Virus record (IMG/VR): IMGVR_UViG_2657245124_000006
Direction: 5' to 3' (one strand)
DNA: 24,063 bases
DNA from: a virus
Taxonomy: Duplodnaviria; Heunggongvirae; Uroviricota; Caudoviricetes
The stretch's first letter is position 1. Each line of letters opens with the position of its first letter. Below the pieces are notes generated by a model. The model searched no databases. It was not told the DNA's origin and worked only from the letters and a program-made list of their open reading frames with translations. Of the stretch, positions 1-11,668 are shown in pieces. The position numbers and the translations under genes were made by a program.

Positions 1-468
1 TTAATTTAATCGGCTACGATAAAAGTCTCTTGTTATGTTGCGATCGATGACTACTTCACAACGTGCTGAAGGTCTGTAACCCTCACGAGCCTTAATCCAT
101 GGTTCTTCTTTATGAGTCATATCTTCAAGTTGTGCGCCAGAAAAAGCACCGTAGACTTCAAGAACGCCATCAATATGAGCTGCGGTTGCGGCTGGAATGG
201 ATGAAAGATCAAACCCAGGAGTGCGATCTGCAATCGTTATGTCCGAATACAGTGATTTTGTAGAAGAGAACCGGTTATAAATCGCACGGCTTACTGGGCC
301 ATGAATCCAAGCTTGAAACTCCTCATCCACTAACTTTTTATCGAAAAAAGCTAGATACCAAGCATCTGCGTAATAAGCTAATTTTTGCAGCTTCAAATTA
401 GACATAGTTTCACCTGAAGCTAAGATTTTTGTGATGATGTAATCACATAATTGGTTAATATTTATCAT
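1..468 (-). CDS. Panacea-domain (DUF4065) protein, GepA/SocA-like putative antitoxin
   Basis: 155 aa, ATG at 466-468, AGAGGGA ribosome-binding site upstream. The segment 'LKLQKLAYYADAWYLAFFDKKLVDEEFQAWIHGPVSRAIYNRF' matches the DUF4065 signature as I recall it. Stop codon is at window positions 1-3. Confidence 0.7.
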   Translation of the reverse strand: MININQLCDYIITKILASGETMSNLKLQKLAYYADAWYLAFFDKKLVDEEFQAWIHGPVSRAIYNRFSSTKSLYSDITIADRTPGFDLSSIPAATAAHIDGVLEVYGAFSGAQLEDMTHKEEPWIKAREGYRPSARCEVVIDRNITRDFYRSRLN

Positions 469-633
469 TATTTATCCCTCTAGGCTTGGTGTCTAAGCAG
501 CCAATCTTATTAAAGATATCGACCGTTAGAAATCTTTGAATACCAAGTTAACTTATAGTGGCATACATAGCTGAATAAATCGAGATTCAAACGTGCTAAA
601 ATGTGATGAATATGGATGAGCAGTGCTTTCATT

Positions 634-1841: not shown

Positions 1842-2033
1842 TTATCGTGAGTTTTTAGTACAGATTTTTTTGGATTTACTAATAGTTCCATCATTGCAAA
1901 CGAATTTGCCATCTGAGGTACAGTGAGAAACACCTCCCTTTTTCCCTGAGCAGGGATAATTTCTAGCATAGGTAGCTAGTGGGTTTAATAACAAAGAACA
2001 TGACAAAACCACAAAAAATACCTTACCAAGCAT
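1842..2033 (-). CDS. Small secreted cysteine-containing protein (63 aa), candidate lysogenic-conversion moron
   Basis: ATG at 2031-2033 with a strong GGGAGGAAATT ribosome-binding site. It starts 16 bp after the CI stop, same strand. N-terminal signal-peptide-like stretch '[23 protein letters not shown]', then a ~40-aa mature part with 4 Cys. AT-rich codons. Confidence 0.55.
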
Positions 2034-8915: not shown

Positions 8916-9446
8916 TTAACCTTGTATAGTTATTTGAATATTTTCTTCATTGACACCAAAGTATAGGGCTAGCCCTGCTTTTGCCTCCTGAAGTGTTAAC
9001 GGCTTAACTACATTTTCTTCTTCTTCTTCGTACTCATCACCCGCTTGATCGACAATCGAATTAGTCGGGGTTAATTTTGGAAGAGCTTTAAATTCCAACT
9101 TGTCAGCCTCAATGCCAATGTCTTTGAGGTTGCGATAAGAAACGGGATTCCGATTGCCATCCCATTGTCCTGGGATGTCAATTTCAGCATAAGAATTGAT
9201 GTTTATGATCCAGCGTTTAGGGTTTTCTGGAGCCCTGCTTACTCCCGAGATTCGACCGATCATAAAAGCATGATGATGTTTTGCTTCTTGTGATCCCCAG
9301 TCCTTTCTCGAATTTTGTACACAAACTAAATATTCGTGCTTAGCTGCATGGCTGGCGTCAAGTCTCCATGCTTGGCTTCCCCCTGTGTTCAAAATCTCTG
9401 TTAAACCACGAGCAGTAAGTACAGTAATACAGTTGGTAGTAGCCAT
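8916..9446 (-). CDS. Uncharacterised 176-aa protein, cargo gene at the phage right end
   Basis: ATG at 9444-9446, no competing frame, AT-rich. Acidic patch 'DEYEEEEEN'. I recognise no family. Transcribed divergently from the OLD-like gene. Confidence 0.6.
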   Translation of the reverse strand: MATTNCITVLTARGLTEILNTGGSQAWRLDASHAAKHEYLVCVQNSRKDWGSQEAKHHHAFMIGRISGVSRAPENPKRWIININSYAEIDIPGQWDGNRNPVSYRNLKDIGIEADKLEFKALPKLTPTNSIVDQAGDEYEEEEENVVKPLTLQEAKAGLALYFGVNEENIQITIQG

Positions 9447-9916: not shown

Positions 9917-9982
9917 AATAATGCAAATTATTGAGTCCCATTAGTTCAAAACTTAGGGATATCTTATGTGAAAGGAGGTTAT

Positions 9983-11668
9983 ATGTTAGATAAATTGATT
10001 TTTAATTCAGGAAGTAATCCAACATCTAAATCTTCATTATCGGTTGACTTGACTCCATTGACAATTTTTGTGGGGCCGAATAATAGTGGTAAATCTAGAG
10101 CTTTAATCGATATAGAAAATCAACTGACAACCCGAAATGCAGCGCAGGGAGAAGTAATAAAACAGATATTAATCAAACCACTTTCTGAGGATGAAGCAAA
10201 AAAGGAAATTGAATCTTTACAAGTTGAGCCAAACCAGGATGAAAAGCATGCGGGGCATGTTGTTTTATCTAGGCTAAACCTCCGTGGTGAAGGAATATCT
10301 AGGATTCTAGTGTATTTGGATGGAATGTTAAGAGAATTCCAGCAACCCAATGAATTCAATCGGGAGCATCTATATCAATATTACTCGTTGCTGACTCTAA
10401 GGTTGGATGGTAGAAGTCGACTTTCCTTAACTTCAAGTCAAGGTTCATCCGATTTACAAGGAGAACCTACGAATAACCTTTCATTTCTTTTTAAAAATAA
10501 TAAAGCAAGGATGGAGCTAAGAGATATCGTTTTTGATGCTTTCGGGAAGTATCTTGTTATTGATCCAACAAATATAGGTTATCTTAGAATTCGTCTTTCT
10601 GAGCGCGCTCCTGAGACTGAACAAGAAGAAAGAGGTTGGGATGAAAAGTCAGTGCTTTTTCATTCAAAAGCGTCATTGATTACAGAGGCTAGCGATGGTG
10701 TTAATGCTTTTGTTGGGATGATGATTTCGCTGATAGTTGGCTCACCAAAGGTGACTCTAATTGATGAGCCGGAAGCTTTTTTACATCCATCCTTATGCTC
10801 AAAGTTAGGAAAGGAAATATCTAGGATTAGTGCTCATAGTAATAAAAATGTGTTTATTTCAACGCATAGCGCTAATTTTTTAATGGGTTGTGTTCAAGGT
10901 AAAGTGCCATTGAATATAGTTAGGCTTACTTTTGATGGTAAATCTGGTACGTCTAGATTACTAACAAAGGAACAATTGACGCCGCTCATGAGAAATCCGT
11001 TATTAAGATCTATTGGTGTGCTAAACGCATTGTTTTATAATTACGTTGTCGTTACTGAAGCGGATGCAGATAGGGCATTTTATCAAGAGATTAATGAGCG
11101 CTTATTGGCTGCTGGAGATCCTCGGGGTATTGAGGGATGCCTGTTTTTGAATGCTCAAAACAAACAAACTGTTTGGGATATAGTAAAACCCCTTCGTGAG
11201 CTAGGTATTCCCTGCGTTGGAGTGGTAGATATCGATATATTGAAGGAGGGAGGAGTTGTATGGAAAAAACCAATGCTTGGAGCTTTTTTTCCAGAAATGA
11301 AGCATGAAACTTTAGGTTTGGAAAGACAAAAGCTTTTTCAAGCCTTCAAAAATACGAATAAAAATATGAAGACAGATGGGGGCCTCTCCTTGTTATCGGG
11401 TTCAGATAAAACCGCCTGCTCTGAGTTTTTTAAATCCCTTTCAGATTATGGGGTTTTTGTCGTTCCAACGGGCGAGATCGAGTCTTGGTTGCAAAATCTT
11501 GAAATAGGTCGAGGAAAGAATACTTGGTTAACAAGTATTTTCGAGAAGATGGGGGATGATCCTAATGATGAATCATATGTGAAGCCATCTGAAGGTGATG
11601 TTTGGGATTTTATTGGGAATATAAAGCACTGGTTGGTTAACCCTGAAAGGAAGGGTATTCCCGAGTGA
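9983..11668 (+). CDS. OLD-family / AbiL-like predicted nuclease (ABC-type ATPase plus C-terminal Toprim-like domain)
   Basis: 561 aa from ATG at 9983 (AGGAGG ribosome-binding site; track start at 9968 is GTG). Walker A 'GPNNSGKS', Walker B/D-loop 'VTLIDEPEAFLHPS', H-loop-like 'ISTHSAN'. C-terminal 'VVVTEADAD' and 'VGVVDIDIL' fit a Toprim E...DxD pattern. Very AT-rich. Confidence 0.8.
   Translation: MLDKLIFNSGSNPTSKSSLSVDLTPLTIFVGPNNSGKSRALIDIENQLTTRNAAQGEVIKQILIKPLSEDEAKKEIESLQVEPNQDEKHAGHVVLSRLNLRGEGISRILVYLDGMLREFQQPNEFNREHLYQYYSLLTLRLDGRSRLSLTSSQGSSDLQGEPTNNLSFLFKNNKARMELRDIVFDAFGKYLVIDPTNIGYLRIRLSERAPETEQEERGWDEKSVLFHSKASLITEASDGVNAFVGMMISLIVGSPKVTLIDEPEAFLHPSLCSKLGKEISRISAHSNKNVFISTHSANFLMGCVQGKVPLNIVRLTFDGKSGTSRLLTKEQLTPLMRNPLLRSIGVLNALFYNYVVVTEADADRAFYQEINERLLAAGDPRGIEGCLFLNAQNKQTVWDIVKPLRELGIPCVGVVDIDILKEGGVVWKKPMLGAFFPEMKHETLGLERQKLFQAFKNTNKNMKTDGGLSLLSGSDKTACSEFFKSLSDYGVFVVPTGEIESWLQNLEIGRGKNTWLTSIFEKMGDDPNDESYVKPSEGDVWDFIGNIKHWLVNPERKGIPE

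Follow-up and report, generated by a model that had tools for sequence, protein, structure and literature searches.

A standalone Panacea gene and its conserved partner as cargo between attL and the integrase of a P2/186-like prophage in rybB

Results

A Panacea gene and its partner beside the integrase

We analysed a 24,063-nucleotide stretch of viral DNA (Caudoviricetes; IMG/VR record IMGVR_UViG_2657245124_000006), hereafter the window, at whose left edge a Panacea (DUF4065) gene, panA, adjoins the integrase gene of a prophage; positions left of the first letter are given as negative numbers. The panA gene is a complete open reading frame (ORF) of 155 amino acids on the minus strand at 1-468, with its ATG start at 468-466 and its TAA stop at 3-1. 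By the Pfam threshold its product belongs to the Panacea family: residues 27-124 match SocA_Panacea (PF13274) with E=2.1e-19 and 70.9 bits, against a gathering cut-off of 25.7 bits, and the match covers profile positions 1-112 of 113. The protein also matches phrog_1281 (E=2.4e-37), has the same sequence as RefSeq entry WP_001710106.1 ('Panacea domain-containing protein') and is identical in 24 Escherichia coli genomes. Directly upstream on the same strand lies int (634-1653), which encodes a P2/186-type tyrosine integrase (Pfam Int_N, 2.3e-32; Phage_integrase, 4e-21). The initial annotation, which had placed a minus-strand Panacea gene beside an integrase at the window edge, was right about the gene and its neighbour; the extent it had given, 1-633, was too long, as the gene ends at 468 and 469-633 is leader. 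An assignment of PanA to SocA, a type VI antitoxin, was dropped, because the protein scores 63.3 bits against the NCBIfam SocA equivalog model, whose cut-off is 190, and its partner is not SocB-like.

The 165-nucleotide leader between int and panA (469-633, minus strand) is non-coding and holds a GAGGG ribosome-binding site at 476-480 and a single weak inverted repeat at 512-537 (AAAGATTTC-N8-GATATCTTT). A 40-amino-acid ORF at 510-632 was rejected as a gene for want of family support, so that, as first described, only an intergenic region and int lie upstream. The leader is part of the cassette: cargo-free prophages lack it, and its conservation is restricted to the P2-like context. No terminator was predicted on the minus strand between int and panA, and transcripts from int may read through into panA and its partner.

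The panA stop codon has its last base at position 1, and the partner that had been anticipated further left is found there. In strain BE2-5 (locus L001) and in locus L002, an ORF of 251 amino acids on the same strand (WP_001710104.1, 'hypothetical protein'; L001 7240-7995, equivalent to window -760 to -5) starts 5 nucleotides past the panA stop, and the host gene rcdA comes next. The first 700 nucleotides of the window recur with 99-100% identity in 24 of 5426 complete E. coli genomes; these same 24 hold both cassette genes with the partner start in this position, and in every case the pair adjoins this integrase.

The arrangement extends well beyond E. coli. Among 80 partner loci in GTDB species genomes, which include Proteobacteria, Bacteroidota, Planctomycetota, Cyanobacteria and archaeal metagenome-assembled genomes, 76 have the partner immediately preceded by a Panacea ORF on the same strand (as do L003-L006); of the four others, three are gene fragments. 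Positions 1-468 thus encode a standalone PanA, whose gene comes first in a conserved cassette of two. This is the kind of association by which Kurata et al. defined pairs, with a partner within 100 nucleotides and a two-gene architecture kept across species. More than 180 partner homologues of about 240-260 amino acids were collected, all unnamed and without Pfam domains; a partner profile found 736 matches at E<=1e-3 among 1.84 billion cluster representatives, and none of 50,697 phage records matched the partner in a tblastn search. PanA and partner diverge together (r=0.88), with mean identities of 0.49 for PanA and 0.37 for the partner. The genes around the cassette vary from locus to locus and include integrases, DarT/Macro, TrbL, an smpB-adjacent island and a Yersinia prophage remnant beside ybjL. 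Judged by these neighbourhoods, PanA and its partner form an obligate, mobile module.

The cassette lies inside the prophage

In prophage-free E. coli K-12 the locus consists of rcdA-rybB-ybjL only. At the far end of the prophage in L001, adjoining ybjL, stands an intact RybB gene (Rfam, 105 bits), and the prophage is bounded by a 27-nucleotide imperfect direct repeat with a 14-nucleotide identical core, AACAAAAAACCCAT. The attL copy lies at L001 7099-7125 (window -901 to -875) and the attR copy at L001 14585-14611. The position of the attL repeat means that phage DNA starts 114 nucleotides past the partner stop, and therefore that panA and its partner lie between attL and int. We conclude that a P2/186-like prophage inserted in the 3' end of rybB carries the cassette as cargo, between the attL crossover and int, in a slot whose contents vary among related prophages. 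The rybB gene is a documented insertion site of P2-like prophages in E. coli W, B and Crooks (PMC3032704).

Of the two origins that had initially been entertained for panA, prophage cargo next to att is thus correct, since the partner was found and the gene is not a host gene. The alternative, a host chromosomal gene that merely abuts the prophage, is refuted by the att mapping and its probability is negligible: panA lies inside attL, is absent from the empty K-12 site and is confined to the 24 genomes in which it accompanies this integrase, and an int-PanA-partner layout recurs in another enterobacterial host (L094). Nothing was found in favour of a host gene.

Several further features were seen around the attachment site. 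At attL, the phage side together with the rybB core forms a terminator-like hairpin on the minus strand, AACCCGTTTACATAAATGGGTT followed by TTTTGTT (L001 7140-7119; window about -881 to -860). This hairpin mimics the RybB terminator and would end transcripts leaving int and the cargo. Both attP arms carry a 23-nucleotide direct repeat, CGCTGCCGCCACTTTGTCGCCAT, 91% identical between its copies at L001 7218-7240 and 14521-14543; one copy overlaps the ancestral int tail described below and the other lies just past ogr. They may serve as arm-type sites for Int or as a substrate for recombination. In BE2-5 the same prophage is a remnant of about 7.5 kb, in which cII, terminase and tape-measure genes are annotated as fragments (L001 10998-12632) and int, panA and the partner are intact.

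A fixed cassette junction in the 3' end of int

Related integrases with 80-90% DNA identity are present in 1122 E. coli genomes, and the slot between attL and int at the rybB site differs among them. It holds an ORF of 240 amino acids in strain MS 145-7 (L008) and one of 110 amino acids in the BL21 lineage (L010), and is empty in E2348/69 (L009) and in strain 38 (L011). In blastn comparisons with related prophages, homology stops exactly at the partner stop (L001 7239) and restarts 12-17 nucleotides inside the 3' end of int. The blastn boundaries and translations of the Int C-terminus place the right-hand junction of the cassette at 634-650 on the minus strand. The Int protein here ends in NPLATMVTT and that of cargo-free relatives in NPLATLPSGDKVAAAVGITP, the cassette having rewritten the 3' end of int such that a terminal MVTT replaces LPSGDKVAAAVGITP. 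The displaced ancestral tail, GDKVAAAVGITP with its stop codon, persists as an orphan remnant right past the partner stop (L001 7200-7238; window about -800 to -762). The L008 prophage has another cargo ORF joined in frame to this remnant, and this implies that cassettes are exchanged at a fixed point. About 1,135 genomes have only an attP arm of about 140 nucleotides in common with this prophage.

The att-int region has been described as a minor defence hotspot of P2 phages, with 3% of P2 systems (PMC13586616, Nucleic Acids Research 2026). That survey counted recognisable defence systems, whereas the cassette described here is unmatched by PADLOC models.

A related arrangement was observed in Yersinia enterocolitica (L092/L093, 5533-6747), where a PanA-partner pair with 57% identity is the immediate neighbour of ybjL, in the surroundings of rybB, and adjoins phage tail-fibre genes without an intervening integrase. 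From this position, the cassette therefore also occurs at the other end of a P2/HP1-like prophage, or in a rearranged one.

The partner as a long member of PanT cluster T1

The partner is related to WP_077311930.1 of Vibrio palustris (our P0012; E=5e-81, 51% identity), which was listed in PanT cluster T1 with order A|T, a gap of 4, reciprocity 5/5 and a 'noNTD' PanA (Kurata et al. 2022, Dataset S1; PMC8832971). On this homology we assign the partner to cluster T1. With 217 of the 1,268 predicted pairs in the table of that study, T1 is level with T2 as the largest class of PanA partners, and the predicted mode given there for both tested T1 members is 'mRNase' (Table S1; PMC8832971).

The conserved part of the partner is a core at residues 28-151, with an identity of 0.48 compared with 0.22 for the C-terminal tail. 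Its invariant residues include H84, W88, N110, Q118, D144, H147, N148 and Q150, and its motif reads GRVVGFWDE...FNIVLLDPLHNIQP. This core, about 125 residues including an insertion of about 35, is predicted to adopt a RelE/HigB/ParE fold, as the models contain the beta-alpha-alpha-beta-beta-beta arrangement of the RelE/ParE superfamily. Past the core come a Cys-rich linker and then a putative ribbon-helix-helix (RHH)-like domain at about residues 205-248. On the sequence side, NCBIfam returned a weak MAG6450_fam match only, and a profile search of PDB sequences gave noise only.

The partner of Salmonella phage Emek, one of the two T1 proteins that have been assayed, is a short form of 161 amino acids that ends right after the core. 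The other, from E. coli MOD1-EC5558, has a gap to its PanA of -20 nucleotides, which is consistent with an in-frame TTG start in an Emek-like E. coli pair; the long form would need a 25-nucleotide shift. From this gap and the short Emek protein we infer that the T1 proteins tested so far are of the short form of about 140-160 amino acids, and therefore that the long form is not among them.

Other accessory loci of the prophage

Beyond int, the gene order is an ORF of 63 amino acids followed by a gene for a 186-type CI repressor. The former (1842-2033, minus strand; WP_001513672.1) is conserved, has a signal-peptide-like N-terminus and several cysteines, and gave no family match. In E2348/69 (L009) the int-cI slot instead carries a KAP-NTPase gene (PADLOC PDC-S20/PifA-like) and an extra CI-like gene, an example of other cargo in related prophages.

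At 9968-11668 on the plus strand the window encodes a 566-amino-acid OLD-family ATPase-TOPRIM protein (Pfam AAA_15, AAA_21 and OLD-like_TOPRIM; PADLOC Old, E=1.3e-20). The gene lies between the replication gene and the portal gene, a classic P2 defence hotspot, and the prophage therefore has at least two accessory loci. Beside it, in the same gpA-gpQ hotspot, is an ORF of 176 amino acids (8916-9446, minus strand) with no Pfam or PADLOC match; it may work with the Old-like gene as its partner or be separate cargo.

Discussion

Comparison with known systems

The closest known relatives are the T1 pairs. In V. palustris, WP_077311932.1/WP_077311930.1 likewise consists of a noNTD PanA upstream of a hypothetical protein of about 240-250 amino acids with a gap of a few nucleotides, but the Vibrio copies lie in other islands, beside DarT/Macro and TrbL genes, whereas the E. 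coli copy is on a P2/186-like prophage at rybB. The pairs of short T1 type in P22-like phages (Emek YP_006560565/6; MOD1-EC5558 WP_089622957/WP_077635758) fall in the same FlaGs cluster T1, are phage-borne and have PanA upstream. The Emek-type and 251-amino-acid partners are both weak MAG6450_fam matches with a collinear core that has KKxxFSF at its start and (V/I)xLD...N(I/L) at its end. Unlike the 251-amino-acid partner, however, the Emek protein lacks the Cys-rich linker and the RHH-like tail, and its similarity to the 251-amino-acid family is not statistically significant (hhalign E=0.29; no tblastn match).

In the PanT:PanA pair of Bartonella choladocola and the toxFtsL:PanA pair of Gelidibacter mesophilus, PanA is the Panacea domain alone, as here, and such a standalone domain neutralises its toxin by direct contact (Ernits et al. 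2023, PMC10440598). The toxins of these two pairs are a membrane protein and a GAF/FtsL-like protein, respectively, unrelated to the RelE-like partner of the present pair. The validated PanAT pair of Burkholderia prophage phi52237, which is a P2-like phage, is also prophage-borne, but its toxin is nucleotide-cyclase-like and has another fold and another effect (transcription, ppGpp). The type II systems RelBE, HigBA, YefM-YoeB and ParDE have no sequence-level member in our partner; in addition, unlike in the RelBE/ParDE type, the RHH-like domain would be on the presumed toxin, and the presumed neutraliser is a Panacea protein. SocAB, the Caulobacter type VI toxin-antitoxin system whose SocA is the founding Panacea protein, likewise has a Panacea domain in its antitoxin, but the partner here is unrelated to SocB and the ClpXP-adaptor mechanism is not implied.

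Function of the pair

We propose that the partner is an effector held inactive by PanA and that the pair serves as a prophage addiction and/or abortive-infection module. The antitoxin function of PanA would follow from family membership and gene-pair conservation: PanA is the neutraliser in all nine validated PanAT pairs (Kurata et al. 2022, PMC8832971). In a lysogen, transcripts of the pair would start in its own leader or arrive from the cI-int lysogenic operon through read-through, panA and the partner would probably be translated in a coupled manner, and transcription would stop at the attL hairpin. PanA may bind the RelE-fold partner directly and so keep it inactive, which is proposed because direct binding has been shown for other standalone PanA proteins (PMC10440598). 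Once another infecting phage, or prophage loss, had removed or displaced PanA, the effector would be free to stop growth, most probably through mRNA cleavage and a block of translation, with addiction and/or abortive-infection protection as the outcome for the prophage.

Our confidence in this proposal is moderate because short T1 relatives were reported as non-toxic and because no defence model is matched. A number of observations weigh against it. Both T1 pairs that have been assayed in E. coli, those of Salmonella phage Emek and strain MOD1-EC5558, were scored 'not toxic' (PMC8832971). Neither PanA nor the partner matched the defence models of PADLOC-DB v2, and the partner matched no Pfam, PADLOC or PHROG profile. 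PanA is better conserved than its partner, which is unusual for an antitoxin. A sigma-70 promoter scan of the minus strand of the leader found no convincing site usable for panA, and operator-like palindromes upstream of panA at 68 loci were barely more frequent than expected from shuffled sequences (12% at p<=0.05). The fold assignment also has results to its disadvantage: none of 55 family members, nor the consensus core, matched a Pfam profile, those of the RelE, ParE, HigB, YoeB and YafQ families included, Foldseek of the partner against the PDB returned nothing significant (best E=0.6), and hhalign of the partner family profile against HigB and RelE single sequences gave no signal. For the tail, the RHH matches were not repeated with a second model, and no individual family member matched the RHH_1 profile.

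Some of these observations would suit a partner that does no harm by itself and serves as a regulator, its RHH-like domain binding DNA, for example at prophage or host promoters, with PanA as modulator or sensor and no killing. The lack of toxicity of the tested T1 proteins, the resemblance of the C-terminal domain to RHH repressors, the unmatched defence models and the stronger conservation of PanA all fit such a role. Yet we consider it unlikely, as conservation in the partner is strongest in the RelE-like core, with its invariant His/Asp/Asn/Gln residues, and not in the tail (0.48 versus 0.22), short T1 members are entirely without the tail, and palindromes are not enriched upstream of panA. 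A partner with the same fold could also hit another target than the mRNA-cleaving RelE/HigB type, namely gyrase, as a ParE-type poison. We give this little credence: RelE, HigB, YoeB and YafQ outscore ParE in both models, the cluster of invariant His, Asp, Asn and Gln just past the last core strand suggests catalysis, and T1 was labelled mRNase by Kurata et al.

It is very improbable that the roles are reversed, with PanA as the growth inhibitor and the 251-amino-acid protein, through its RHH domain, as antidote and autoregulator. RHH domains are indeed typical of antitoxins, PanA is the better conserved of the two proteins, three PanA proteins were themselves toxic in the assays of Kurata et al., and some phage records label Panacea genes 'GepA-like toxin'; however, the nine validated pairs speak with one voice on which protein neutralises, and the partner core is toxin-like and not antitoxin-like.

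To return to an effector restrained by PanA, a bolder version, which we advance only tentatively, is that the long T1 partner is a toxin with its own RHH DNA-binding domain that stays inactive until triggered. Such inactivity would explain why T1 proteins are non-toxic on plain over-expression. If this were true, the division of labour in RelBE and ParDE would be inverted, in that the effector would bind the operator or other DNA and PanA would be a pure neutraliser or the sensor of the trigger. T1 would then be a conditional, phage-triggered defence effector that is swapped among P2-like prophages as a cassette at a fixed point in the 3' end of int.

The pair itself adds one more member to a PanAT class that is already catalogued, and the prophage slot that holds it is recognised as a site of accessory genes; modestly new are the way in which the domains of the long T1 form are arranged and the fixed position of the cassette junction in int. 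In other respects the locus is ordinary annotated prophage cargo. As a copy on an E. coli prophage, it offers a convenient test case in a native host for whether T1 is a conditional RelE-like effector and for what PanA senses, and it could also show if P2-like prophages trade defence cassettes through their att-int slot.
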